64,000 nucleotides of DNA from Bacteroidota bacterium (GTDB lineage Bacteria; Bacteroidota; Ignavibacteria; UBA10030). The translations under genes were made by a program, and so were the position numbers. Where the stretch lies: positions 1,251 to 65,250 of the forward strand of contig JBEKOB010000008.1 in assembly GCA_049522195.1 (NCBI GenBank), in the 5' to 3' direction. Below the pieces are notes generated by a model that worked only from the letters and a program-made list of their open reading frames with translations, had not been told where the DNA came from and did not search any database. This document shows, piece by piece, positions 7,700 to 64,000 of the stretch (within the stretch, counting starts at the first letter, position 1; each line of letters starts with the position of its first letter).

Positions 7700-9865
7700 T
7701 TAGATGAACAGGGGTGCGAGAACCAGCGTGAGCGTGCTTAACAGTTTGATCAGCACGTGGAGTGATGGACCTGCTGTATCTTTGAATGGATCACCCACCG
7801 TATCGCCGACCACCGCAGCTTTGTGAGCTTCCGACCGCTTGCCACCGAACATTCCGGTTTCAATGAGCTTCTTTGCGTTGTCCCATGCACCACCACCGTT
7901 GTTCATGAACAAGGCCATCAGAATCCCCGTGATCGTGGCCACCATCAGATAGCCTCCAATCACTTCTGCGCCCGTCGCTCCGTCAACCGGGCTGCCTGTG
8001 AGCACGTAGAGCCAGCGGAATCCAATTCCAACTGCAAGTGTCATGAAGACAACCAGGAGACCGGGAAGAACCATCTCCTTCAACGCCGATTTCGTCACAA
8101 TATCAACGCACTGCCCGTAGTCAGGCTTCGACGTTCCCTGCATAATGCCAGGATTGTTCCTGAACTGCTCGCGGACATTATTGATAACTGCATATGCCGC
8201 CCGCCCTACTGCGCGGATGGCCAGCGAAGAAAAGAGCATCACGAGCATCGCTCCGAACATCGCACCGACGAACACTGCTGGTTTCGACAAGTCGATGGCG
8301 CGCAGATCAAATCCGTAATTACGTACTTCATCGAAGAATGCGCTGAACAGAAGAAAGGCTGCCAGTCCGGCTGAGCCTACGGCATATCCTTTTGTCAACG
8401 CTTTGGTCGTGTTGCCAACCGCATCAAGACGGTCTGTTTTCTTACGGACTTCCTCGGACTGCTGGCTCATTTCAACAATGCCGCCAGCGTTGTCCGTGAT
8501 CGGTCCGAACGTATCCATCGCAAGGATGTATGCGGCTGTTCCCAACATGCCCATGGTGCCAACAGCTGTCCCAAACAATCCTGCGTGCGCCAAACCCGAA
8601 AACTGCCCAAGAAAATAGGTCGAAACAATCGCAGTGCCAATAACGAGCACCGGTAATCCCGTCGATTCCATGCCAACCGCCAGTCCTGCGATGATCGTTG
8701 TTGCTGGTCCGGTCTGAGAAGCTTCCGCTATAAAGATAGCGGGACGGTGTGTATAGTCGGTGTAGTACTGGGTGATATACACGAACGCTATCGACGTCAG
8801 CACGCCGATGACGCCGCACAGGAAGAAGTTGAAGTAATATTCGCTTCCAAGCAGCCAGCGCGAGGCAAAGAAGAACCCGATCATCGCAAGTCCCGCCGCA
8901 ACGTAGTATCCGCGGTTCAGAGCTTGCATTGGATCTTCCTGTTCGTTCGTCTTAACGACGAGTATTCCGACAGCTGATGCGATAATTCCAAACGCACGAG
9001 CGACAAGCGGAAACAGGAGAACACTGATCATCGACATGCCGTGGCTCACAAAATAGCTTGTATTTGACATGTAGAGCCCGGCAGCCAGAATCATTGCGCC
9101 GATGTTTTCGGCGGCAGTCGATTCAAAAAGGTCTGCACCACGACCTGCGCAATCCCCGACATTGTCACCGACGAGGTCGGCAATGACGGCCGGGTTGCGT
9201 GGATCGTCTTCCGGAATTCCCGCCTCCACTTTGCCCACAAGGTCGGCGCCGACATCGGCTGCTTTCGTGTAGATTCCGCCACCAAGCTGGGCGAACAGAG
9301 CAACGAAGCTCGCTCCAAATCCATATCCGACAATGAGAAGCGGGATCTTCGAAAGGTCTTTCGTCACGTCATAGTAATTGACAATGGCGAAAAGCCCGGC
9401 AACACCGAGCAAACTCATCGCGACCACAAAGAACCCCGACACTGCACCGCCGCGAAGGGCTGTCTGGAGAGCACCGTTGATTCCTTTCAGAGCTTCGGAT
9501 GCAGTCCGAATATTGCTCCGAATCGATATCCACATTCCCATGTATCCGGCAGCGACAGAGCAGGTCGCCCCGAGAGCAAATGAGAGCGTCGTCCAGAATG
9601 CTAGCGCGGCAGGAGCAGCAGGATCGTGAATCGTAGGAGTTCGGACAAACGCATACAGAACGTAGATAAGAGCCGCTAGCGCGATGGCAAGAACGGCGAT
9701 TGTGCGGTTCTGTCGCCGTAGGAATGCTTCAGCGCCGGCCTTGATAGCGTCGGAGATCTCTCTCATCCGCTCGGTTCCAACATCGCGTCGCATCACATCG
9801 CGTAGCAGGTACAACGCAAAAAGAAGCCCGAGGACACTAATGCCAAGAACGAGATACAATTCCAT
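7700..9865 (-). CDS. hppA: Membrane-bound proton-translocating pyrophosphatase, K+-independent type
   Basis: GGIYTKAADVGADLVGKVEAGIPEDDPRNPAVIADLVGDNVGDCAGRGADLFES and GDTVGDPFKDTAGPSL motifs. The start is taken at MELYLVLG (ATG 9863-9865, preceded by GAGGG); the 34 codons upstream in the ORF track look like read-through. Confidence 0.9.
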   Translation of the reverse strand: MELYLVLGISVLGLLFALYLLRDVMRRDVGTERMREISDAIKAGAEAFLRRQNRTIAVLAIALAALIYVLYAFVRTPTIHDPAAPAALAFWTTLSFALGATCSVAAGYMGMWISIRSNIRTASEALKGINGALQTALRGGAVSGFFVVAMSLLGVAGLFAIVNYYDVTKDLSKIPLLIVGYGFGASFVALFAQLGGGIYTKAADVGADLVGKVEAGIPEDDPRNPAVIADLVGDNVGDCAGRGADLFESTAAENIGAMILAAGLYMSNTSYFVSHGMSMISVLLFPLVARAFGIIASAVGILVVKTNEQEDPMQALNRGYYVAAGLAMIGFFFASRWLLGSEYYFNFFLCGVIGVLTSIAFVYITQYYTDYTHRPAIFIAEASQTGPATTIIAGLAVGMESTGLPVLVIGTAIVSTYFLGQFSGLAHAGLFGTAVGTMGMLGTAAYILAMDTFGPITDNAGGIVEMSQQSEEVRKKTDRLDAVGNTTKALTKGYAVGSAGLAAFLLFSAFFDEVRNYGFDLRAIDLSKPAVFVGAMFGAMLVMLFSSLAIRAVGRAAYAVINNVREQFRNNPGIMQGTSKPDYGQCVDIVTKSALKEMVLPGLLVVFMTLAVGIGFRWLYVLTGSPVDGATGAEVIGGYLMVATITGILMALFMNNGGGAWDNAKKLIETGMFGGKRSEAHKAAVVGDTVGDPFKDTAGPSLHVLIKLLSTLTLVLAPLFI

Positions 9866-52986: not shown

Positions 52987-53052
52987 GGTGAATATCCAAT
53001 GTCGAACGCCCAATAACGAATGATGAAGTGAGTTGTTTGTTCGTCGGGATGA
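52987..53052. repeat. Direct repeat copy B (3' flank plus the last 9 nt of tRNA-Pro)
   Basis: See copy A. It starts ggtgaatatccaatgtcgaa and ends tcgtcgggatga, which overlaps the tRNA acceptor 3' strand. Confidence 0.7.
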
Positions 53053-53118
53053 CAGGATTCGAACCTGCGACCCCCTGCGCCCAAGGCAGGTGCTCTAACC
53101 GGGCTGAGCTACATCCCG
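53044..53118 (-). tRNA. tRNA-Pro: tRNA-Pro (anticodon TGG)
   Basis: The - strand reads CGGGATG TA GCTC AGCCCGGTTA GAGC A CCTGC CTTGGGC GCAGG GGGTC GCAGG TTCGAAT CCTGT CATCCCG A. This is a full cloverleaf with a TTCGAAT T-loop and anticodon loop C-T-TGG-G-C. No CCA is encoded. Confidence 0.9.
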
Positions 53119-54036
53119 AAGAAAATCAAAGGTTTTTCCATCTCGCCGCTCGCAAAAAGCATCAAACTAGGGTAGTCTGTTAGCAGTTTGTTAGCAGCTC
53201 TTCCCTCTTGAACCCACTGCATTCGCTCCCCAAATGGTCATTCTTTACCACCGCTCGTTAGCAACACGTTGGGGAATAGCCTTTGGATCCGTCAGTCGAG
53301 CGTATTGAATGATTTCAGTTGCGCACACAATGTACGGAAGGTTGATCACGGACGCAAGGCGTTCGTAGCGGCCCAAACATTCTGCAGACACGTCGTTCTG
53401 TAGAGGCGGTTCTTCCCGTGTCTCCTCCACCGGCACGTTTCTCTGGACTCAGACTGCAAAATGAATTTCTGCAAGAATCGATTTCCGAGCCCGAAAAGTC
53501 CGAGGGTAGAAAAGGACCGCTTAGAATCAGCTTTTTTCCATCGTTGGTCTGGAACAGCTGTTAGCGAATTGCCCCACTACTAATGGGCGAATTTAGAATC
53601 AACGTACTGATGTCTGTGTTTTCCCCAAGAATTGAACAAACTGAAGACCGAAGTCATTTAGCAAGAATACTAGATCCATGATCTAGTACACAAAAACAAA
53701 AGACCCCTGTAGACAGAGAGGTTTTGAGTTACCAGCGATCCAGATGTCACCAAAAAGTTACAATTCCGCGAAAGCCTCTCTCTCGTTGAAGGTGTGGTCT
53801 TGACAAGCGAGAAAATCTCCTCCTCAATGGCTCGATTACGAGTGTTGTTCCGGGGGTCTCCTGCCTACGTATCCATTAGCCTAGCGCAAATACCCAACGA
53901 GCGGCTCGCAGTAAGTCGGTTCTGATTCGATGCTAAAATCGGTGCTAACTCAAGGAACCGGTGTCCGATACAACGAGAGGTAAGCATCCTTCTGGCGCAA
54001 CCACTCACTCAAGACCGATCAAAGAGTCACCTCACA

Positions 54037-54070
54037 ATCCCCGCACCTGCACCTGCAACCGTGTGGGGAT
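54037..54070 (+). repeat. GC hairpin repeat, copy 1 (upstream of the LuxR-type gene)
   Basis: ATCCCCGCAC-ctgcacctgcaacc-GTGTGGGGAT followed by ttctgtttca. It uses the same stem as copy 2, and its loop carries an extra CCTGCA hexamer. Confidence 0.6.
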
Positions 54071-54110
54071 TTCTGTTTCATGCGGAAGTAACAAATGAGG
54101 AACGAACAAC

Positions 54111-54335
54111 TTGAGACTCAAGACCAAGAAACGATTCTTAGGGAGACCCCCTGCACCGAAAGAGCTTGAGACATGGAGGTTGTTGGCTCAAGGACTCACG
54201 AGTAAGGAAATCGCGAGAAAGCGACGGGTGTCGGTCGGAACTATAGAGACAGTTCGATCAATACTCTTGAGCAAGCTCGGTGCGCGCAACACTCCGACAC
54301 TGATCGCTATGTGGTACAGGCAGGAGAAGAAATGA
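54111..54335 (+). CDS. Stand-alone LuxR/GerE-type HTH protein (74 aa)
   Basis: LETWRLLAQGLTSKEIARKRRVSVGTIETVRSILLSKLGARNTPTLI fits the LuxR C-terminal HTH pattern. TTG start with AGGAA 8 nt upstream; there is an in-frame stop 12 nt upstream of the start. Confidence 0.65.
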   Translation: MRLKTKKRFLGRPPAPKELETWRLLAQGLTSKEIARKRRVSVGTIETVRSILLSKLGARNTPTLIAMWYRQEKK

Positions 54336-54363
54336 GATGCACAAAACCTGATCAGAAATCAAA

Positions 54364-54391
54364 ATCCCCGCACCTGCAACTGTGTGGGGAT
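54364..54391 (+). repeat. GC hairpin repeat, copy 2 (probable terminator of the LuxR-type gene)
   Basis: ATCCCCGCAC-ctgcaact-GTGTGGGGAT followed by tgccgtttca, 29 nt after the stop codon. Confidence 0.6.
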
Positions 54392-54527
54392 TGCCGTTTC
54401 AGGGGGAATGTGAGGCGGGGACGGTGGTGGTGAAGACGGTGGTGAGGAGGGATATCATATCATTCGAGCTTCAGCGGAGGCAGTTTGTACCACTCGAATG
54501 CGATCATAGCGATCCGGGTCGCTCAAA

Positions 54528-55010
54528 TCATTTCCGCTTTGACTTACCACTGCTCGTTTGCCCCCGCTCCCATCTGTCCTTCGCCTTCGCATCCACCTTG
54601 GTCTGCCACTGCATGTTGGAGGGGTTATCCCTACCACCGTTGGCCAATGGAATGATATGATCGATAACATATCCAGGCCGTCCGTGCGGATAGCCAGTCT
54701 GCTTCATGAATTGACGTTTCGCCGCCTCACTCCGTTTGATCTTGCCATGTGAATCTCGCTGGACTCCCGTTACGTAGGATTTGCGGTGGGTAGTTGATGA
54801 ACGTATGCTTGGGGCTGACTTCTTCTGGCGTGACGGAGATGACCGGTAGTGACTTGATGAGGATCGTGAATGAGATTGGTAGGTTCGGCTATGAGTTACA
54901 AATGACCGTTTGCCCCCTTTGGATCTTTGTGCGTCGATTGTGGCTGGGGCGAGCAGTAGGCATGCCAGCGCTACGACAAAGGCAGATACTAATCTACGGT
55001 TCATTGCCAT
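54528..55010 (-). CDS. Signal-peptide HNH (His-Me finger) nuclease domain protein
   Basis: MAMNRRLVSAFVVALACLLLAPATIDAQ signal peptide, a Ser/Arg/His-rich linker, then GYVIDHIIPLANGGRDNPSNMQWQTKVDAKAKD (HNH pattern DH.iPl..GG.d...N.Q). The ORF track start at 55040 would overlap the receiver gene. Confidence 0.65.
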   Translation of the reverse strand: MAMNRRLVSAFVVALACLLLAPATIDAQRSKGGKRSFVTHSRTYQSHSRSSSSHYRSSPSRQKKSAPSIRSSTTHRKSYVTGVQRDSHGKIKRSEAAKRQFMKQTGYPHGRPGYVIDHIIPLANGGRDNPSNMQWQTKVDAKAKDRWERGQTSSGKSKRK

Positions 55011-55026
55011 GCCACCCTGGTCACAT

Positions 55027-55407
55027 TCACGGGATACCACCTATTGCGTTTCGCACCGAAGCCAGAATCTCACTTAAACCAGAAGGTTTGAGAATGAAGT
55101 AGAAGGCACCCAAGCGCTTTGCCTCAAGAACCGTTTCCCTGTTCGCATTGCCGGACCAAAAAATAACAGGAGTATCCGCTATGTCTGGATCCGCTTTAAG
55201 TGCCTTAAGGAACTGGAGTCCATCCATGAAGGGTGAGTTGATGTCAGTGATATTCACATCCGCATGGTGTTCTCTGAGCCATGATATTCCAATACTCTTG
55301 GACTCCAATCCGTAGACCTTAAAGCCCGCCTTTTCCAGCTCTTTAATCAGAAGAAGCACAAGATTTTTCTCGTCATCCAGAACCAAAATTACCTTGGGGT
55401 TCATCAC
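55027..55407 (-). CDS. Orphan single-domain response regulator (receiver only)
   Basis: KVILVLDDEKN...DVNITDINSPFMDG...VIFWSG...FILKP: the receiver landmarks DD, D, S/T and K are all present. Confidence 0.75.
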   Translation of the reverse strand: MMNPKVILVLDDEKNLVLLLIKELEKAGFKVYGLESKSIGISWLREHHADVNITDINSPFMDGLQFLKALKADPDIADTPVIFWSGNANRETVLEAKRLGAFYFILKPSGLSEILASVRNAIGGIP

Positions 55408-55458
55408 AGAACGTACTCTCTAATTGCTTGTTTGATGTCTTTTTCAATACCAATTGAT

Positions 55459-55749
55459 CTACGCCGCCCTGGTAATGTTGATCGAACACCACTGCCCCAC
55501 GGTCATCTCACTTCCGGTGATCTTTGTACCAGCCTGCCTCAAGCATACATGTCGATTCAACGGATCACCCAGCCATTCAAGAACCATCCTGCCATTGATC
55601 TCCGCGTCCGAATGCGTCTTGAATAGGAACGCTTCATCGACATTCGCTGACCAGTTGATGGAGTTGAGATCCCAGAACTCAAAATGGCTCAGGTATTCCT
55701 TGCTGTCGGTGCGGCGCAGGATGGTGTATGTGGTTGGGAGGTGATTCAT
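55459..55749 (-). CDS. Small protein of unknown function (96 aa), paralogue of the 55-codon ORF at 57269..57436
   Basis: AAGGAAGGA lies directly upstream of the ATG. The first about 50 residues align with the other small ORF, and many of the differences are synonymous third-position changes (see findings). Confidence 0.65.
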   Translation of the reverse strand: MNHLPTTYTILRRTDSKEYLSHFEFWDLNSINWSANVDEAFLFKTHSDAEINGRMVLEWLGDPLNRHVCLRQAGTKITGSEMTVGQWCSINITRAA

Positions 55750-55835
55750 TCCTTCCTTGACTCATTTAATACGTTGGAGCATTCCAGAACGCTGATTCTG
55801 CGAGCGCCGGTTTGCCATTTGTCAGCCGGCGTGCC

Positions 55836-57272
55836 TCACTTGACAACGACCACACCATCACCATTCCTTATTACTGCGACCGGAGTCCCGCGCACGACAG
55901 CTAGCGTGCACGTGTTGAAATCAATAGATGACTTGTCCGCAGCGTTCGGAATATGGTAGCGATGACTATCTAAGCTGCCCCACACGCTCCATCCGTTTTT
56001 ACGGAGATCGTCGATTTGTTGATTGAAACCAAGCTGAGCTTCAGCCTGAGCTTTCACACCGATATCATCCCAAATGTCGATCCAATCGCGAACACTATCC
56101 AAAAACGAAGCTACTAGCTCAATTTCCGTTTCATTTTTCAACTCTTCATTGAAGATGAGACTAGCTTCGGCGCCGCCAATGATTTTCGCCAGTTGTGATC
56201 CAGAGCCAATGAGCGACAGCCGAGCTGCTTTTAGTGAATGAGATACAGTCTCTAGGATATCAGGTCGGATAACTTTGATTAGCTTCCTGGCGACGACATG
56301 AATTCCATCTTGCCACTTGGCAGCAATTCGATCTGCCAACGGAGGTGAGAAGGCTCTAACCTGTTCGACGTCTACGTTGTGCCAAACTGGAAGTATTAGT
56401 TTCTGACCGTTCGCCTCGCGTTGGGCCAGCCCATCAAGTTCCCGAGTTGGATAGTGCTTACCGAAAAAATGTGGTGAGAGTAATACAATACCAAATTTGC
56501 TGTTGGCAAGTCCTTCGTCGATTTTCTGTCGCAAACTGTCACCTACATTCAGCTCTGTCTGGTCAAACCAAACAGAGATACCCATTCCGCGGAGAAGAAT
56601 AGCCAGTGGAGCGGCTATTACCTCCCGGTCCTCAGATGCATACGAGATGAACGCATCCCACCGAGAGGGTCTGAAAGTTGAATCGAGGACATTGCGAGAT
56701 TCGACCTGCTGAGACTGAGGCTGTTCAAATACCGGTTCGGACCGTGGCTCTAGTTTCTTCTTGATGAAATTCTCCAAGCCATCGTATTGATAGAAGAAAT
56801 CAAATCCAGGCTCTCCTCCAAGGTTGATTTCATATACAAGGTTCTGTTCTTGATCCTTTCCCACCAACACGTGCCAGGTTGGACTCACAAAATCGCGGAC
56901 CAGCTCAAGGATCCGATATTTTTCCTGATCTCCCATGACGTTTTGCGTAGGGAAAGCCGACAATGAGATCTTGTCAACATTGGGGTGCTTCCGCACATAG
57001 TTCTGAATTGCCCTCAAGAGATCGTCCAGAAACTGAATATTGTCATCATCGGGATTGACGTGTGCTAATCCGAGAATAGTGAGGTTTCTTCCCCCTGGAG
57101 CTAGCCTCCAGTCGATTTTGCCCGGATCGAAATCAACAGGGATTTTACCTAACAATTCGGCTTTCAATTCACGCACGGTTCTGGTCTCTTGCTTCCTGAA
57201 TATCTCGTAAAGGGCTTGAAGCCATATTCTCTGTGCGGCATCAATTTTCAGTTGGGGGAGCCTGTACTTCAT
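55836..57272 (-). CDS. TIR-domain protein (478 aa) with unassigned N- and C-terminal domains
   Basis: The central region WDAFISYASEDREVIAAPLAILLRGMGISVWFDQTELNVGDSLRQKIDEGLANSKFGIVLLSPHFFGKHYPTRELDGL (about nt 56283-56657) fits the bacterial TIR_2 pattern, including the conserved Glu. Confidence 0.8.
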   Translation of the reverse strand: MKYRLPQLKIDAAQRIWLQALYEIFRKQETRTVRELKAELLGKIPVDFDPGKIDWRLAPGGRNLTILGLAHVNPDDDNIQFLDDLLRAIQNYVRKHPNVDKISLSAFPTQNVMGDQEKYRILELVRDFVSPTWHVLVGKDQEQNLVYEINLGGEPGFDFFYQYDGLENFIKKKLEPRSEPVFEQPQSQQVESRNVLDSTFRPSRWDAFISYASEDREVIAAPLAILLRGMGISVWFDQTELNVGDSLRQKIDEGLANSKFGIVLLSPHFFGKHYPTRELDGLAQREANGQKLILPVWHNVDVEQVRAFSPPLADRIAAKWQDGIHVVARKLIKVIRPDILETVSHSLKAARLSLIGSGSQLAKIIGGAEASLIFNEELKNETEIELVASFLDSVRDWIDIWDDIGVKAQAEAQLGFNQQIDDLRKNGWSVWGSLDSHRYHIPNAADKSSIDFNTCTLAVVRGTPVAVIRNGDGVVVVK

Positions 57273-57436
57273 TGCAGACCTTTCTTCGTTTTGGACCCAG
57301 CATCAAAGACAATTGCCATGTGATTCACGTGCGCAGACCATTGCAGTGAATTCCGATTCCAGAATTCGAAATGAGTCAGATATTCGTTGGTGTCGGTGCG
57401 GTGGAGGATGATGAATGTCAACTGGAACTCATTCAT
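57269..57436 (-). CDS. Small ORF (55 codons, not in the ORF track), translationally coupled to the TIR gene
   Basis: My translation is MNEFQLTFIILHRTDTNEYLTHFEFWNRNSLQWSAHVNHMAIVFDAGSKTKKGLQ*. Its TGA overlaps the TIR ATG (ATGA at 57269-57272). It is a paralogue of 55459..55749. Confidence 0.6.
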   Translation of the reverse strand: MNEFQLTFIILHRTDTNEYLTHFEFWNRNSLQWSAHVNHMAIVFDAGSKTKKGLQ

Positions 57437-57486
57437 GCTTATTCCGGTGTTTCGCTGGATTCTGCTGGCTCGACCTTTTTGGACGC

Positions 57487-57774
57487 TTATAGCAATTTCG
57501 CACGAACAAGACGAGCGACAATTCTGGCAAACTCATCCGCCACTTGTTCCTTCGGAGCGGGATCGTCGGCGACCTTCATCACGATTTCCCACTCAAGGGC
57601 ACGCTTGCCCTTTCCCCAAACTGTTTTGAATCGACCGAGTTCTTTGCCAGCGTTTGGTGATTGGGTTCGCATTGAAGAATTGTCGTCCGCAGCAGATGGG
57701 GCCGCATACTCGGCAACGAGATCTAGCTCATTTCTACCATCGACAAAGGGAAAATCCGCGTTGAGCACGCGCAC
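57487..57774 (-). CDS. Hypothetical protein (95 aa)
   Basis: It is co-directional, lying 43 nt after the HEPN gene and 50 nt before the small ORF. I recognise no motif in it. The antisense + strand ORF 57371..57778 is judged spurious. Confidence 0.4.
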   Translation of the reverse strand: MRVLNADFPFVDGRNELDLVAEYAAPSAADDNSSMRTQSPNAGKELGRFKTVWGKGKRALEWEIVMKVADDPAPKEQVADEFARIVARLVRAKLL

Positions 57775-57817
57775 ATAACAATCCTCTCTTCAATACGCAT
57801 CGTTTGCGTAACGTGAG

Positions 57818-59470
57818 TTAGTAGTATTTCAATTCATCTGGAATATTTCGAGCGAAAAGAGGAATTACTTTCTCCTCACCCAAGATTCTTTCCTTCTTAG
57901 TTTCCTCAATCCAAACGAGATTGACCAAGTAAATTATAGCAGAACGCACGGCTTGAAAGAGATTCAAAGTTACTTCTAACAGTTTATCTTCTGTTATGGC
58001 AAGCTCATGGATATTCGTTTCCTCGTCCTCATCTGAAAACGGAGATGAGATCGGACCCAAGGGAACCACCTGAAGGTATTTGTGTTCCAAATGATTTCGT
58101 ATAATTGAAAGATGGCTGAGATTGCCTTGTTTAGAGTAATCTTGAGCTATATCATACAGGGCTACTAAACCAACATTGGCTTGAATTTCATTCAGTTTGT
58201 TGTTTATGCCTTTTTTGAACTCCAGATCGGCATACCAAATATTTGCGAAATAGATTTTCCCCTTTTGATTCAATTCAAGATATTCATTCAAGAATACCGC
58301 GATCTTATCAAGCGAACTAAACGCCAAACGGTACGAAAATTTCAGCAATTCCTGATAAACATTCATCGAAGCATAATCAAGCGTGTTGATAATCGCAACC
58401 TTGCCGTCTACAAATCTGAGCTTAGGATCTTTGAACTGAGATTGAGTCAACAAGAATCTCGCAGTAGCAAACTCCTGTTTGACTTGGTTAAGATATCGAC
58501 AAAGGCTCAGATATTTGTCTTTCCCCTTTGAGGGCACTAACATCTTTTGAATGACAATCGGATCGCCAACGGAGGCATAGCAGTTGCAATAAAAGCTGTG
58601 GGGATTTAAGTAAAGCCTGTGGTTAAGGCAGAAGTTCACATAGAATGTTTTGAACCGAGACCGATATCTCCTGTGCCATACTCTGACGTGCTCAGTTTTC
58701 TTCCTCAGATTCATCTTGCCCGTCAATGATTTCTTAATCGGCTTCAAATAACTATCCTCAAAGAATCTCCTTGGTGCTTCTTCGATCATTTTAGATTTAC
58801 ACGCGCTCTTTAGCATCCAGTAGGCTTCATAATACAGCTTGGAATAGTACTCTTTTTCTGGTGTGACGTGAGTCAGAAAGCAAAAGACCCTTGCCTTATT
58901 TGCTAAAGCCATCGGATGTTTTGGAGAATGGTAAAGAGCTTTATCATAAAATTCGATTGATTCGAGATTTCTTCCTAGATCGTTGAAACAGTTTCCAAGA
59001 TTTACGTATAGGCGGGCCATCCGCTCGTTGTCAATTTGTGGTCCTTTCTCAGTTAGCAAAGTAGTCGCATGATAGAAACAGTTCTTGGCTTGTTGGATCT
59101 GATTGATTGATACAATTGAGTATTTAAAATCAGGTTCCTGTTTTTCGATTTTGTGCAGGGCAGCAAAACCATTCCCGAGGTCGTACCAATAGGTGAACTC
59201 AAGTTCTTTGCCCTGCGTGAAGATTCTTTCCTTGTTGCTTTCGAGAAACCCGATTCCTTTCCTAACGATAGCCGGATCATTCAATCCGTCGCCAATATCA
59301 ATCAAAAAACCTGCTACGTTTATGAGCACACCTATCTGATGAAGGTCGTACTTTTGATTTATTACCGACAATCCTTCGAACGCTTCTCGATACTTGCCTT
59401 CGCCAATCAGCCGGCTCACTGACCTAAATTCATCAGGATAAAGGAATTGACTCATTTCTTCGGTTACCAT
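57818..59470 (-). CDS. TPR-like N-terminal region fused to a C-terminal HEPN-like domain (Rx4H)
   Basis: TPR-like segments (ARLYVNLGNCFNDLGRNLESIEFYDKALYHSPKHPMALANKA). An RNHLEH motif lies at nt 58082-58099, 87 residues from the C-terminus, in a helical context (LSHLSIIRNHLEHKY). Confidence 0.6.
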   Translation of the reverse strand: MVTEEMSQFLYPDEFRSVSRLIGEGKYREAFEGLSVINQKYDLHQIGVLINVAGFLIDIGDGLNDPAIVRKGIGFLESNKERIFTQGKELEFTYWYDLGNGFAALHKIEKQEPDFKYSIVSINQIQQAKNCFYHATTLLTEKGPQIDNERMARLYVNLGNCFNDLGRNLESIEFYDKALYHSPKHPMALANKARVFCFLTHVTPEKEYYSKLYYEAYWMLKSACKSKMIEEAPRRFFEDSYLKPIKKSLTGKMNLRKKTEHVRVWHRRYRSRFKTFYVNFCLNHRLYLNPHSFYCNCYASVGDPIVIQKMLVPSKGKDKYLSLCRYLNQVKQEFATARFLLTQSQFKDPKLRFVDGKVAIINTLDYASMNVYQELLKFSYRLAFSSLDKIAVFLNEYLELNQKGKIYFANIWYADLEFKKGINNKLNEIQANVGLVALYDIAQDYSKQGNLSHLSIIRNHLEHKYLQVVPLGPISSPFSDEDEETNIHELAITEDKLLEVTLNLFQAVRSAIIYLVNLVWIEETKKERILGEEKVIPLFARNIPDELKYY

Positions 59471-59751
59471 TTCAGCATTTTGGGGCTTTTGCTTTTGACA
59501 ATTCGAACCTCATCCTCAGCAAGTCCGTATAGTTTGTAAACAAGTCTATCAATCTCCCCTATCCATTGCCTTGATCTGGTGCTCCAACAGTTCTTTCTTG
59601 CCATCTGTGGTTGATTCTGTTTACGGTGAGGGTCCGACATTCTCTCGACAAGCTGCGCCATCCGTGGTGCATTGCTTTGTCGTCTGGTGGATTGCAAAAG
59701 GCGATAGTAATTTAGATTTCTGTCTGGTCTTTGTAAGCAGTTTGCATTTGA
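59464..59751 (-). pseudogene. Remnant of the C-terminal tail of an Eco57I/type IIG-like methyltransferase
   Basis: The stop-to-stop frame ends ...MAQLVERM....IGEIDRLVYKLYGLAEDEVRIVKSK, parallel to the tail of the 1015-aa enzyme (HLVGLVEQIM....LDRQIDEAVYELYGLTEEEIKIVEG). No upstream methyltransferase body is present. Confidence 0.55.
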
Positions 59752-59758
59752 TCATACT

Positions 59759-60601
59759 TCACTCTTTCCAAATCATTTCCCCTCTAGCATTCCAGAAAAT
59801 CTCGCCAGGACCCATCCAAGGGAAAAGACCACACTCTTCTAGCTTCAGTAGCACAAATTTGATTGCATCCCCTGGACTTTGCGATAAGGTGCATAAGAAC
59901 CTAGCTCCAGGAAAGTTAGTTGCACAGGCAAAGAACTCAGGCCCGACAATATTCTCATCACCTTTTTTGAAATACAGGGGTGTCAATGCTATGCCAGCAT
60001 CCCCCGTCCGCATCATACCATAAGGGCGGTAATCATTCTTTTGGGGAGCTCTGACATATCTTCTAATCTCAGAATACAAATTAGAGCTGTGATGAGACTT
60101 GGTCTTCTCGATATCATTATTTGTGTCTTTCAACATCTGCCATATTGAGCATTCAAAAGCGATTTTGTGCAAAGCTCGACTTACCTGTGTATGGTTCACA
60201 TTCTTTAGACTTGCGTGCTGTATAGATAGTGTACCATCATTTTTCAATACTACTCGCCCTTCACCTTTGTCGATGCTTAGTAATTTATTCCTCCGAGAAG
60301 TCAACCTTACTGTTTCGTTTTCATAGACAGAAATTGACGAATTATAACTGGGAATGCTTTTCAATGTTTTCCACATCCGTAAAACCGGATGATTAACAAG
60401 ATGAGTATCCAAATGTGAGCCGAAATAGCGGTTGCAACTCCTGCAAATAATTCCTTTGGGGAGGGTATAGGGTGATATAATACGCAGCCTTGGGTCATCG
60501 CTCGTATTCCCAAGCGAAAAAGGGATGATATTATATTCATCGTCAGACTTGCGATCGACCTTCCCTGAACAATACAGGCAGGTGTCTGTTATTAAGTTCA
60601 T
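59759..60601 (-). CDS. HNH_5-like zinc-ribbon endonuclease-fold protein (catalytic His replaced by Tyr)
   Basis: CLYCSGKVDRKSDDEYNIIPFSLGN....ICRSCNRYFGSHLDTHL follows C..C....EH.iP..LGG....vC..CN..f....D, but with EY for EH and GN for GG. About 200 further residues are unassigned. Confidence 0.5.
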   Translation of the reverse strand: MNLITDTCLYCSGKVDRKSDDEYNIIPFSLGNTSDDPRLRIISPYTLPKGIICRSCNRYFGSHLDTHLVNHPVLRMWKTLKSIPSYNSSISVYENETVRLTSRRNKLLSIDKGEGRVVLKNDGTLSIQHASLKNVNHTQVSRALHKIAFECSIWQMLKDTNNDIEKTKSHHSSNLYSEIRRYVRAPQKNDYRPYGMMRTGDAGIALTPLYFKKGDENIVGPEFFACATNFPGARFLCTLSQSPGDAIKFVLLKLEECGLFPWMGPGEIFWNARGEMIWKE

Positions 60602-60723
60602 TCACTTTTCTTTCTCGCTGTCGGCCTTTGTTTGTATGAACTTCAACCGTTGAGCCCGATTGCGCCACATCAGAGATTCTTGACCTTTTGTTTTGTACGA
60701 TCTCCAAGCGTCGTTTTTCGATT

Positions 60724-63700
60724 TCACGTCCTTGAGTCGCCCTCCACAATCTTTATCTCTTCTTCTGTCAACCCATATAACTCATATACAGCTTCATCGA
60801 TCTGACGGTCCAGGCTTTCACACTGCAGTTCGAGCCGATTCTTTTCGGCATCGGTCTTCGCGGTTGAGAGTGTTTCTTCGGAATACATTATCTGCTCGAC
60901 AAGGCCCACTAAGTGATCGTGTTTCGATCTTTGTGATGAATCATCAAAATCAATCATATGTATGGGCAGTTGCTCTGTGTACTTCGTCCAGAAACGAACA
61001 TATCCTCCCCTCAACGCCGTACTGACACGCTTGAGGCACCAGAATAACAACTTGCTGTTTAGCAGGGCAAGAAGGTATTTCGGACTATGCCTGTCATCCT
61101 TTGGAAGTAAGCCATAACCTGTCTTGAAGAAATGTCCATTTGCATCGATCGTGAACGACGCTGTATTGTTATAGTCGGGGACCACGATCTTGGGCCTGGA
61201 AAAGAGAGTCATACTCTTCGGGTAACCAAAGGCATACCAGTTTGGCCCTTTGAATCGCCCACCTTCTCGTTTCATTAGCTTTGTCTTGTTCAACTCCAAA
61301 TACGAATGTGCTTTTGGAAAATCCCTCTTCAGATCAGTTTCTTGAATAAGATTGAACTCAGTATCGCCGATTTGGTAAGGGCAGATCATGACGGAAGAGG
61401 AGTGCAGGGGTCGATATCGACGGATATCCTTTCCCTTCAGGAATCTCTTTACGATCTCTGATTCTACATTCATACGCTGGGTGAGTGATGCCGAATCCCC
61501 TTTCACTATCGATTTACCAAACTCGCAGTTTTCCAAAACGAAGACGTCATCTGCACTCGTTTGGGTTCCTACGAAAATATGGAACACTTCAGACGCGTTT
61601 CGGTTCGTTGATTCGAGTCTGCGAAACAACCTCTCGTCGCCGGCGTCTCCAAATATCCACTGTGTTCCCGAAATTGATTTTTCTTCTATGACAATCTCAT
61701 CCGCCTTCAAGTCCTTCTCCCACGTTTCAATATCCCCAACCTTAGCAAACCTGAATTCCGTATTGTTTCTCTTACTTAGGAAAAGAAGGCAAGTATACGT
61801 TGTCGCACCAACAAACACTTGATTCTCTCCGAAATGAACCACTTTGTCCAAGAACCTCCCGTCTGCGACGATGCGACGAAGTCCTTCACCATATTGAGCA
61901 CTGAAAAATTTGTGCGGCAAAATGAATCCTAAGCTCCCCTCCCAACGCAAAAGGCTGATCCCTCGCTCGACGAAGACAACATATATGTCATAGTTCCCTG
62001 ATGCAGCAGATGCAAAGTGATCTTTGAGATATTTCACAGATTCAGGACTGGACTCATTCATCGTTTGAATTCTTATGTACGGTGGATTCCCCACAATACC
62101 ATCAAAGCCACCCCTCTTGATCACCTTCGGAAACACTTCTCCTGTGTTCATTGGTTTGAGCTTGGAATCATCTACATTCGGGAACAAAGATCCATCGAGA
62201 ATATCCCGCCCGACTAGAGAATTTCCACACACAATATTGTTTTTCAGGTCAGGCAGAATTGTTTCCTTGAACAATCCGAACTGATGGGCATCACTCATCG
62301 TTGCGTCTTCGAGGAGCTTCAGATACAGTGAGAGCTGTGTGACTTCGGTTGCTTGGAAATCGATATCCACACCGTAGATGTTATTGAGTAGGATTTCTTT
62401 CTTCTTTTTCAGCGAAAGATGTAGTTGCCCATCACGCTCAAACAGATCGTCCGTCTTCGCCTTCTCTCGGTTTGCCAGGTAATATCTGACGTGATAATCG
62501 AGCAGTTGAGCGTACACTTCGATCAGGAATGAACCCGATCCGCACGCAATATCTGCAAAAGCCAAATGTGCGATCTCGGCGGGAGTCTTGCCTTCGATCT
62601 GCCTCCCGACTGTTTCCTTTACGATGTAGCGGACGATGTATTCGGGAGTATAGTAGACACCACCTGACTTTCGAACCTCCGGTTTTTCTTCAACCTTCAC
62701 ACGCTTGTCAGTAGCGTGCACCACCTTGCCTAGGAACCTCTCGTAGATGCTGCCAAGAATCGATATCGGAATTTGGTTGAAATCGTATGGGGAACCCGGA
62801 TCGGCCAGCTCCGAACATATCTCTGCGAACATTTTGTCTTCAGTAGTAGCAAATGTGATCTCATCCAGTATGCGATGCGGCTTGAAGACCAACCCGTTGT
62901 ACTTGGGCTCACATCTTTTGCAGAGATTGACAAATCCCTTCCAAGCCGACTTCTGTCCTTTGAGATTGATGATCGCCTTCTCTTCAATACCTTTGTCTTC
63001 GAGGAACCGGATAAACACAAGTCGGTCAATTGTTCGTTGGACGGCCTCGGTGAGTTCTTCTCCTTCCAGCTTTTCATTAGCCTTCTTGAATGCTTTGGCA
63101 AGCGTGATGCGATATTCATCCAGCTCTTCCAGAAATGCTTCATCGACCGCTTGATATCCTCCTTTGAGCAATCCTTTCTGGCCACCCTTGCCACGCGGCT
63201 TTGGCAACTCAGCCGCCCGCTTCTCAATTGAACCACCCGCAACGGCCTCCCGTGAGAACAGATAGTAGACATGGGCGAATTTGTCTTCGACGGCATAGTC
63301 GGAATAATGGAATGACTCCACTTTGCGATTCATCGCTTCGTCGATATCTGGTTTGAACCGGCAGTCCAGAATATGAAATTCTTCGAAGTCTGTTAGTACC
63401 GCAAGCGGAGTTTTTGCATTCCAACCGTAACGGATCGTTTGGTAGTAATCTTCTGCATTTGCAAGGTTCTTCGACGGCTTTTTTGCCTCCACAAAGAATT
63501 TCGGATCTCGGAAATTCGGACTGAGGAAGAATGCGTAGTCAGCTCGCCGCTGGGAAGACCCTGCCATCTTTACCTTGTTCTCAATGTGGACCTCTTGCTC
63601 GTAAGGATTCCTTTGCTGCACGTGTGTGACATCCCATCCCAAAGCAGCGAAGAATTTGTCAATGAAATCCTGACGAACTTGTGACTCTTGATAGCCGGGT

Positions 63701-63771
63701 GAAAGGTAGGCTGCCTCCTGTGCCTTAAAATCAGTCACAAGTTGTTTAATAGTTTCAAAGGACTGCTTCAT
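60724..63771 (-). CDS. Type IIG restriction-modification enzyme (fused PD-(D/E)xK nuclease, gamma-class N6-adenine methyltransferase and target recognition region)
   Basis: The N-terminus has RRADYAFF...KFFVEAKKP (D...ExK). SAM motif I FADIACGSGSFL lies at nt 62527-62553 and motif IV GNPPYI at nt 62077-62088. The long C-terminal region ends in IDEAVYELYGLTEEEIKIVE. Confidence 0.8.
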   Translation of the reverse strand: MKQSFETIKQLVTDFKAQEAAYLSPGYQESQVRQDFIDKFFAALGWDVTHVQQRNPYEQEVHIENKVKMAGSSQRRADYAFFLSPNFRDPKFFVEAKKPSKNLANAEDYYQTIRYGWNAKTPLAVLTDFEEFHILDCRFKPDIDEAMNRKVESFHYSDYAVEDKFAHVYYLFSREAVAGGSIEKRAAELPKPRGKGGQKGLLKGGYQAVDEAFLEELDEYRITLAKAFKKANEKLEGEELTEAVQRTIDRLVFIRFLEDKGIEEKAIINLKGQKSAWKGFVNLCKRCEPKYNGLVFKPHRILDEITFATTEDKMFAEICSELADPGSPYDFNQIPISILGSIYERFLGKVVHATDKRVKVEEKPEVRKSGGVYYTPEYIVRYIVKETVGRQIEGKTPAEIAHLAFADIACGSGSFLIEVYAQLLDYHVRYYLANREKAKTDDLFERDGQLHLSLKKKKEILLNNIYGVDIDFQATEVTQLSLYLKLLEDATMSDAHQFGLFKETILPDLKNNIVCGNSLVGRDILDGSLFPNVDDSKLKPMNTGEVFPKVIKRGGFDGIVGNPPYIRIQTMNESSPESVKYLKDHFASAASGNYDIYVVFVERGISLLRWEGSLGFILPHKFFSAQYGEGLRRIVADGRFLDKVVHFGENQVFVGATTYTCLLFLSKRNNTEFRFAKVGDIETWEKDLKADEIVIEEKSISGTQWIFGDAGDERLFRRLESTNRNASEVFHIFVGTQTSADDVFVLENCEFGKSIVKGDSASLTQRMNVESEIVKRFLKGKDIRRYRPLHSSSVMICPYQIGDTEFNLIQETDLKRDFPKAHSYLELNKTKLMKREGGRFKGPNWYAFGYPKSMTLFSRPKIVVPDYNNTASFTIDANGHFFKTGYGLLPKDDRHSPKYLLALLNSKLLFWCLKRVSTALRGGYVRFWTKYTEQLPIHMIDFDDSSQRSKHDHLVGLVEQIMYSEETLSTAKTDAEKNRLELQCESLDRQIDEAVYELYGLTEEEIKIVEGDSRT

Positions 63772-63892
63772 CTCATCTGCCTGCGTTTAGGACTGGAGTT
63801 CGATGCATACAACAGATTTTCGATGAGGTCACTGCTAATCTACACGAATAACGAGCTGTATTCAACTCATGCGAGCACCCGTTCACCGTTTG

Positions 63893-64000
63893 TTAGTGGT
63901 CGCTTTTCTGCTCAGAGATAATTGGTTCAACTAAATCGTAGAATTCCTTGGTGATTGGTTTCATCTTGACATGTTGATCCATGCCTTCGCGTAACCAATC
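63893..64000 (-). CDS. C-terminal end of an unidentified gene that continues right of the window
   Basis: Open frame to the window edge: ...WLREGMDQHVKMKPITKEFYDLVEPIISEQKSDH*. It is too short to assign. Confidence 0.3.
   Translation of the reverse strand, partial: DWLREGMDQHVKMKPITKEFYDLVEPIISEQKSDH

Follow-up and report, generated by a model that had tools for sequence, protein, structure and literature searches.

A truncated small gene preceding a TIR gene is probably a recombination scar in a variable defence-gene region

Two related small open reading frames bracket a TIR gene in a 64,000-nt stretch of Bacteroidota DNA (the window), and the arrangement raises the question of whether they encode partners of the TIR protein or have come to lie beside it by another route. 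The TIR gene TIR478 (55836..57272) and the two small ORFs, P96 (55459..55749) and P55 (57269..57436), are all on the minus strand; 86 nt separate TIR478 from P96, and P55, a chimeric ORF of 55 codons, ends in a TGA that overlaps the TIR478 start codon as ATGA (57269..57272), as seen in ...ctgcaATGAagtac. The initial annotation, whose coordinates, ATGA overlap, and 86-nt gap all match the recomputed ORFs, took P55 and P96 for real paralogous genes that plausibly act on the TIR protein. Neither looks like a dedicated TIR regulator when sequences and gene contexts are compared; P55 is probably a recombination scar, the front-end leftover of a conserved small gene cut during the exchange of defence genes.

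P96 is a genuine small-protein gene of an unnamed ~95-aa family, as had been proposed: it has 47 homologues at 50-80% identity and matches the family HMM over positions 1-96 (E=2e-52). The P55/P96 family has no match in Pfam, NCBIfam, PADLOC, or PHROGs, a PDB sequence profile search was empty, and scans of GTDB genomes returned very few loci. The AF2 model of P96 (pLDDT 90.9) is a single compact α+β domain consisting of β1-3, a helix (residues 46-59), and β4-5. Foldseek with this confident model found no match in the PDB (best E=0.2, TM 0.36), and viral models gave just weak matches to uncharacterised phage proteins. An earlier AF2 model from a shallow alignment was poor (pLDDT 62) and its fold search meaningless, and profile matches in the large repeat proteins P0168, P0172, P0187, and P0190 were dismissed as spurious motif hits. 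The close subfamily has 15 invariant residues (R13, E18, Y19, L20, S30, W33, F41, S47, D48, N52, G53, R54, D62, N65, and L70), and P96 carries all of them.

P55 belongs to this family over its first part only. BLASTP aligns the N-terminal residues of P55 and P96 with 22/38 identical (E=2e-16), which confirms that the two are homologous; the family HMM scores P55 at E=5e-17, and a repeat search detects the same similarity as a direct repeat of 110 nt (72% identity, spacing 1687 nt). Similarity had been thought to continue for a further 8 residues (AFLFKTHS versus AIVFDAGS), but in local DNA alignments of P55 against six family members the DNA beyond nt 114 aligns no better than shuffles, so that the family homology of P55 ends at about codon 38. 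The ORF is thus a P96-family 5' stump (codons 1-38; 57323..57436) covering β1-β3 only, joined to a tail of 17 codons plus stop (57269..57322) that has no kinship to the family and no match in any fetched locus. Residues 39-96, which P55 lacks, hold nine invariant positions out of 15 (P55 keeps R13 to W33, the first six), the only helix, and the β4-β5 hairpin; more than half of the fold is gone. The view that both ORFs are real genes is not supported for P55, which probably gives no functional P96-type protein.

Codon comparison had been offered as evidence of purifying selection on both ORFs. The synonymous examples cited are correct, but the tally of 8 among 16 differing codons is not: the 38 aligned codons comprise 14 identical, 8 synonymous-only, and 16 nonsynonymous ones, which makes 8/24. 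A formal Nei-Gojobori dN/dS is indeed low (0.18 for codons 7-38 and 0.24 for codons 1-38) and supports past purifying selection; with dS at ~1.1, however, it records the past of P55 as a full-length copy and not present function, and a pairwise dN/dS measured on old paralogues is no proof that a shortened copy still has a function. On this comparison nearly all of the P55/P96 divergence accumulated while the forerunner of P55 was still full length and resided in another lineage. Over codons 7-38, P55 is 82-85% identical in nucleotides to copies of other loci that abut the nuclease gene HNH160 (see below) and 74% identical to the P96 of the window, which, together with the dS of ~1.1, indicates that P55 is no recent local duplicate. 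Private substitutions of P55 in these codons number four (2 synonymous, 2 nonsynonymous), too few to decide on constraint. The ORF is called by gene callers on 7/10 identical metagenome contigs and on 1/2 further ones that carry two base changes in the TIR gene; all 12 contigs are identical across P55, these 2 nt being the sole strain differences. Some observations run counter to a scar: the P55 ORF is intact and its ATG is kept; its family codons are no more diverged than full-length copies (mean dN to the family of 0.14 vs 0.07-0.17), which could mean continued constraint; and selection for translational coupling would produce just such an exact ATGA overlap.

The window contains a third piece of the family. 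On one strand lie, collinearly, the P55 stump (HMM positions 1-45), the intact P96 (1-96), and a 35-nt 3' remnant (85-96; 55007..55041, minus strand), with TIR478 between the first two and RR, a single-domain response-regulator receiver gene (55027..55404, minus strand), between the last two. The peptide of the remnant (...WYPVNVTRVA) reads ...RWYPVNVTRVAWQ*, its stop TAG has become TGG, and the last 4 codons and stop of RR fall inside it. The remnant is contiguous with HNH160 (54528..55004, minus strand), which encodes an HNH nuclease with a signal peptide and is usually the gene that comes directly after a P96-family gene. It is this interleaving of TIR478 and RR with three family pieces that argues for P55 being a recombination scar.

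Other loci that carry the family, here numbered L001 onwards, support this picture; they are contigs of environmental metagenomes from a few related habitats, and the closest genomic relative is an Ignavibacteriales MAG. In ~13 independent contexts the recurrent neighbours are a type IIG restriction-modification (RM) gene upstream and HNH160 immediately downstream. P96 is followed directly by HNH160 in L002, L010, L013, L015, L016, and L030/L031, and the contiguity of the remnant with HNH160 is the same as in L002, L010, L013, L016, and L030; RR stands between P96 and HNH160 only in the window and L001/L011, where the junction is identical. DNA homology to L002 and L030 starts at window positions 55041 and 55036, respectively, begins within the last ~30-35 nt of their intact P96, and continues through HNH160 at 83-89% identity. 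L030 is also 91% identical to the window in the RM protein and 87.5% in HNH160 (amino acids), and between these genes it has one 571-aa gene and P96, nothing more. The flanks of the window are mosaic, with RM (Eco57I/MmeI-like; 60724..63771, minus strand) and HNH160 matching L030 and P96-RR matching L001. Directly upstream of P55 is the small ORF orf95 (57487..57774, minus strand), a homologue of which lies directly upstream of a full-length P96 homologue in L005. The spacer between TIR478 and P96 contains a ~30-nt motif, ACAAATGGCAAACCGGCGCTCGCA (55796..55825, minus strand), with a second copy upstream of the RM gene (63867..63896; shared stretch 24-30 nt) and further occurrences upstream of island operons in L030 and L011. 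A sigma-70 scan of 54400..58000 gave zero sites, an Rfam scan matched a tRNA only, and in the neighbouring genes Pfam and PADLOC profiles matched only HEPN_LA2681-TPR, weak sub-threshold HNH matches, the receiver domain, and RM.

The region is best explained as a variable defence-gene hot spot between the type IIG RM gene, its conserved left flank, and the conserved pair P96-HNH160 of an uncultured bacterium. Incoming DNA with its own diverged P96 copy would have recombined with the resident P96 gene, one end being anchored by P96 homology and the opposite end joined illegitimately. The 5' 38 codons of the resident gene would then have been left beside orf95 and its 3' 35 nt beside HNH160; the 38 family codons would have become fused in frame to 17 foreign codons that by chance end in the ATGA of the TIR478 start. 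At most, the start region of the stump may let ribosomes reach this start.

Copies of the family have been broken and recombined elsewhere too. L001/L011 have two full copies in one island, and those of L001 share ~97% identity over nt 16-160 against ~60% in the 3' half, a mosaic that indicates recombination inside the gene. The upstream copy of L001 is full length, and several orders of events are compatible with the data. Further 5' stumps precede a 169-aa gene in L006 (HMM positions 1-24) and a 504-aa Mrr_cat gene in L040/L041 (positions 6-50); the breakpoints of the three stumps differ (codons ~21-24, 38, and ~50), and all three sit immediately upstream of a same-strand cargo gene. Codons 5-22 of the family form a core with unusually conserved synonymous sites that is kept in every stump. 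Incoming defence genes might preferentially dock at the 5' end of the family and be expressed there, with cargo that lands just behind the core being captured and driven by the promoter and start region of P96; this is improbable, but it would make the 5' end a protein-coding analogue of the integron attI/Pc and P55-TIR478 one capture event.

The main alternative accepts that P55 arose as a scar and adds that it is now kept as a leader ORF whose translation brings ribosomes to where TIR478 begins; stopping and re-initiating at the ATGA would tie TIR478 expression to the former P96 promoter and start region. The overlap itself, the intact ORF, and the retained ATG fit this alternative, as do the TIR478 start, which is the first possible one in frame and is preceded at 7 nt by no more than a weak Shine-Dalgarno-like AAAGG, the position of 3/3 stumps directly before a same-strand cargo gene, and the overlaps in L030 (4 nt linking RM, the 571-aa gene, and P96, and 1 base between P96 and HNH160). 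Coupling is not general, however: the L006 stump does not overlap the next gene but stops 214 nt short of it, and the cargo gene of L040 has its own AGGAGG and a 13-nt gap after the stump. RNA folding at the P55/TIR478 junction reveals no structure hiding the TIR start (z=+1.56), an ORF running through foreign sequence would end at a pre-existing ATGA by chance in roughly 1 of 4 cases, and the contigs offer neither polymorphism nor an orthologue as material for a test of constraint. A maintained leader is unlikely. Decay of a tandem array in place, with P55 and the 3' remnant as old pseudogenes of local duplication and no imported DNA, has a slight chance of being correct. Two full copies do share an island in L001/L011, and copies do decay, as a stop at codon 3 (L006a) and a frameshift (L039) demonstrate, but P55 resembles copies from other genomes (85%) more than the one 1.7 kb away (74%; dS ~1.1), its 38 codons have no excess of nonsynonymous or disabling changes, and the flanks are mosaic.

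That P55 and P96 are both functional paralogues serving the TIR protein as regulator, antitoxin, or adaptor, as the initial annotation suggested, is very improbable. The bracketing of the TIR gene, the low pairwise dN/dS (0.18-0.24), and the conservation of P96 agree with such a role, and in L017 P96 is preceded, two genes away, by a different, unrelated TIR gene (ThsB_TIR, with a SLATT gene after it). A co-occurrence survey nevertheless finds a TIR478-type neighbour in 0/~13 P96 contexts, where HNH160 and type IIG RM genes are the commonest neighbours, although ~13 contexts leave room for a loose association of the family with TIR genes. The relatives of TIR478 are themselves standalone: residues 205-478 align to widespread ~283-aa proteins with a TIR and a C-terminal domain, which the alignment covers except for their first 8 residues, and a search with the N-terminal 204 aa found no homologue; TIR478 is an unusual fusion of an orphan N-terminus to a common TIR protein. 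P55 lacks more than half of the fold, the third family piece and the RR insertion show that bracketing arises from recombination scars, and P96 is preceded by a motif of its own that also occurs at the RM operon. P96 may rather act together with HNH160, perhaps by binding or inhibiting the exported nuclease from the cytoplasm, a tentative suggestion that comes from the adjacency of the two genes.

With the recombination scar as the preferred reading, a tempting false lead is removed, in that the paralogues bracketing a TIR gene are junction debris of cassette exchange and no new accessory module of the TIR protein. A recurrent defence hot spot in Ignavibacteria-like bacteria, next to RM genes of type IIG and the gene of a secreted HNH nuclease, is marked by an uncharacterised family of ~95 aa whose confidently modelled fold has no clear PDB match; copies of this family have repeatedly been broken and recombined there.

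Several known systems resemble parts of this locus. The TIR domain of TIR478 matches profiles of ThsB (E=1e-27), the TIR protein of Thoeris, and of PDC-S66 (E=1e-50), on which the literature offered nothing useful, but only the TIR segment aligns. PADLOC ThsB profiles match residues 181-334, the NCBIfam Thoeris model is far below cut-off, and the PDC-S66 match is partial (profile positions 136-263 of 282, the TIR part, against residues 192-319) and falls short of full length; Pfam and PADLOC scans of neighbouring genes found no ThsA-type effector (SIR2, Macro, or SLOG type). An integron cassette array differs in that no recombinase domain occurs among the scanned island genes, stump breakpoints vary, and the junctions of TIR478 and RR lack inverted repeats of the attC type.

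The locus recalls nuclease-inhibitor pairs (colicin E9 HNH DNase-Im9, barnase-barstar, and NucA-NuiA) in that the gene for a ~95-aa cytoplasmic protein closely precedes one for an HNH nuclease with a signal peptide (2-nt gap or 1-nt overlap); the gene order is reversed relative to colicin operons, and the sequence and fold searches found no resemblance of P96 to Im9, barstar, or NuiA. In polymorphic-toxin loci of the Rhs/CDI type, with their orphan immunity genes and displaced toxin tips, diverged copies and fragments of one small gene likewise collect in a row through recombination with incoming alleles, and a nuclease gene is tightly linked here as well, but a large toxin gene whose N-terminal body is conserved is missing, P96 precedes the nuclease instead of following it, and the intervening cargo consists of unrelated defence genes. 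Scars at island junctions, such as partial duplications of a target gene formed by integration or homology-facilitated illegitimate recombination, and variable defence hot spots framed by conserved genes differ from this locus in that the island has no integrase or recombinase, breakpoints vary with no fixed core site seen, and the repeated gene is an uncharacterised protein gene and no tRNA gene; like them, the locus has conserved flanks (RM on one side, the P96 3' end and HNH160 on the other) around cargo that varies by relative, diverged partial copies of a flank gene that bound the inserted genes, and one copy pair that is mosaic.

P55, a 55-codon ORF (57269..57436, minus strand), precedes the 478-aa TIR gene TIR478 (55836..57272, minus strand), and P96, a 96-aa ORF (55459..55749, minus strand), follows it. 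The initial annotation regarded P55 and P96 as paralogous, both real genes, and plausibly tied in function to the TIR effector. The P55 stop (TGA) does overlap the TIR start (ATG) in the sequence caATGAag, the P96 start lies 86 nt past the TIR stop, and the homology of the two small proteins is borne out (22/38 identities; BLASTP, E=2e-16); their DNA forms a 110-nt direct repeat with 72% identity. Over 38 shared codons the two ORFs agree at 14, differ only synonymously at 8, and differ nonsynonymously at 16; the eight synonymous differences reported earlier are therefore present, but among 24 differing codons, not 16. The similarity thought to continue for 8 further residues is not recovered, as local alignment to six family members past nt 114 is no better than that of shuffles. 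The formal dN/dS for the pair is 0.18-0.24, with a dS of about 1.1 (Nei-Gojobori); the frame shared by P55 and P96 has been under selection. Long plus-strand ORFs mirror P96 (55454-55744; 96 aa, in register) and P55 plus orf95, a small ORF upstream of P55 (57371-57778; 135 aa); these are shadow ORFs, since P55-P96 substitutions (8, 8, and 17 over the three minus-strand codon positions) cluster at the third.

P96 is, as had been proposed, a real gene; it belongs to a small family that has no name. Its relatives among 5.8 billion proteins number 47 at 50-80% identity, mostly near 96 aa in length (66-127 aa overall), and each carries the name "hypothetical" or "unnamed"; a profile run against 1.84 billion cluster representatives returned just 28 clusters, and P96 has no match among the Pfam, NCBIfam, PADLOC, or PHROG models. 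AlphaFold2, with a diverse alignment, predicts a confident single domain (pLDDT 90.9) composed of beta1 (6-13), beta2 (18-24), beta3 (27-34), a helix (46-59), beta4 (70-78), and beta5 (81-89). Foldseek found no significant match to this model in the PDB and, among viral models, weak matches only, to uncharacterised phage proteins. The few genome matches of the family are Ignavibacteriales and Bacteroidetes MAGs, and T9SS sorting domains are present in neighbouring window genes; the host is therefore probably an uncultured FCB-group bacterium. This uncharacterised family deserves a note. Some copies elsewhere are disabled: one is full-length apart from a stop at codon 3 (L006, 1067-1354), and another, on a long-read contig, is split by a frameshift that may be an assembly error (L039, 5001-5304).

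The usual neighbours of P96, in about 13 independent family contexts compared, are HNH160 and restriction-modification (RM) genes; a TIR478-type gene is absent from all of the relatives, which does not sustain the proposed functional tie to TIR. HNH160 (54528..55004) encodes an HNH nuclease domain and, judged from its sequence, a signal peptide; its homologues follow the family gene in L002, L010, L013, L015, L016, and L030/L031 with a 2-nt gap or a one-base overlap. The upstream gene on the same strand is usually type IIG or ISP RM (window, L001, L002, L017, L030, and L032). Judged from gene adjacency alone, the best guess, still a tentative one, is that P96 could bind or inhibit the exported HNH nuclease. 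The cargo between RM and P96 is different in each relative: HNH280, HEPN_LA2681-TPR, orf95, and TIR478 in the window; TPR genes in L001 and L006; one 571-aa gene in L030; and in L017 (2525-8033) ORFs of 680, 327, and 281 aa, a QueC-like PP-loop ORF (judged by eye from its SGGxDS motif), and, immediately before the P96 homologue, a ThsB_TIR-SLATT (DUF4231) pair.

When the family HMM is run on the six-frame translation of the window, three same-strand pieces are found: P55 (HMM positions 1-45; E=5e-17), P96 (positions 1-96), and a 3' remnant (55045..55010; positions 85-96), whose peptide ...RWYPVNVTRVAWQ* matches the family C-terminus, with the stop changed from TAG to TGG. The minus-strand order is orf95, the P55 stump, TIR478, intact P96, RR (a single-domain receiver gene, 55027..55404, between P96 and the remnant), the 3' remnant, and HNH160. 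DNA alignments show the remnant to be contiguous with HNH160 exactly like the intact gene in L002, L010, L013, L016, and L030. In L030, the most useful comparator (RM protein 91% and HNH160 87.5% identical), homology with the window resumes at window position 55036, within the last 30 nt of the L030 P96 gene. The last four codons and stop of RR (55027-55041, minus strand; …GGIP*) come from the remnant in another frame; therefore, both inserted genes have one end chimeric with P96 debris. The RR insertion is the older, because L001/L011 have the identical junction. An orf95 homologue lies directly upstream of a full-length family gene in L005, which fits P55 being the front of a copy once situated between orf95 and HNH160. 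P55 codons 7-38 are 82-85% identical to HNH160-linked copies (L010, L013, and L015) and 74% to the window P96; at a dS of about 1, P55 did not arise by recent local duplication.

Stumps of the family gene recur. In the Ignavibacteriales MAG L006, a complete copy and four cargo genes are followed by a stump of about 21-24 codons that runs into unrelated sequence, and the next gene begins 214 nt on; in L040/L041, 13 nt separate a stump of about 50 codons from an Mrr_cat nuclease gene, which has an AGGAGG of its own. In L001/L011 two full-length copies (8001-8291 and 12763-13053 in L001; 10001-10288 and 14763-15050 in L011) bracket a five-gene cassette; the pair shares about 97% identity over nt 16-160 against about 60% in the 3' half and is a clear recombination mosaic. 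Because breakpoints vary (codons ~21-24, 38, and ~50), the window island contains no integrase, and the window junctions have no inverted repeats, we infer, rather than a site-specific system, ordinary recombination anchored in the repeated family gene, in which the second join would be illegitimate. Codons 5-22 of the family gene (window 55684-55737, minus strand, and 12 other full-length copies) have a synonymous divergence of 0.22, about half the median of 0.48 in the rest of the gene (Mann-Whitney p=1e-4, kinship ignored); nonsynonymous divergence is not reduced there, and this core is kept in all three 5' stumps. Gene conversion, codon bias, or a DNA or RNA element embedded in these codons might account for this.

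P55 is probably a scar left by recombination within a defence hot spot, and its earlier listing as a real gene is not upheld. It is without the helix, the beta4-beta5 hairpin, and 9/15 invariant residues, and this structural loss speaks against its working like P96. The low dN/dS is no evidence to the contrary: P55 parted from every other copy long ago, synonymous sites are saturated, and these differences built up between full-length genes of separate lineages. Its mean dN to the family is 0.14 (range for full copies, 0.07-0.17), codons 7-38 carry four private substitutions (two synonymous, two nonsynonymous), and strain-level contigs are 12/12 identical across the region; the divergence data fit "recently truncated" and "still constrained" alike. 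The main rival, that P55 has been exapted as a leader ORF for TIR478, is unlikely; the stop-start overlap is real and just a weak AAAGG stands upstream of the TIR478 start, but a stump ORF read on into foreign DNA will fairly often stop at an ATGA already present there, the remaining two stumps (L006 and L040/L041) have no coupling to cargo, and the P55-TIR478 junction RNA is without structure (z=+1.56).

The rest of the island (57818-63771, minus strand) encodes a 550-aa HEPN_LA2681-TPR protein, a 280-aa protein whose HNH_5 match is weak and sub-threshold, and a 1015-aa Eco57I/MmeI-type RM-fusion enzyme; tRNA-Pro (53043..53118) lies on the island's other side. The motif ACAAAYGGYRAACSGGYGCTCGCA (24-30 nt) recurs 50-170 nt upstream of island genes (window 63867-63896 and 55796-55825, both minus strand; L030 882-910 and 3121-3151; L011 1625-1655) and may be a shared operator. 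The copy before the RM gene is followed by a sigma-70-like TTGAAT-N17-TAGATT, and the one in the TIR-to-P96 spacer points to a regulatory region belonging to P96 itself. A direct repeat of ~56 nt (54032-54087 and 54359-54408; 86-92% identity) holds a hairpin (AATCCCCGCAC...GTGTGGGGATT) and flanks a 74-aa LuxR/GerE-type ORF (54111..54335, plus strand). Related copies stand near 8892 and 9313 in L030, and the repeat may represent a further small cassette or be REP-like.

TIR478 itself looks like a recent fusion. Residues 205-478 are 56% identical to a standalone 283-aa protein, covering all but its first 8 residues, and this TIR plus C-terminal-domain protein belongs to a family of >200 members; the first 204 residues (56661-57272, minus strand) have zero homologues among 5.8 billion proteins and would constitute an orphan, possibly sensor, domain. 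The PADLOC profiles for ThsB and PDC-S66 align with the TIR segment alone, and Pfam and PADLOC scans of neighbouring genes found no ThsA-type gene near TIR478; TIR478 is best described as a candidate single-gene TIR defence with an orphan N-terminal extension.
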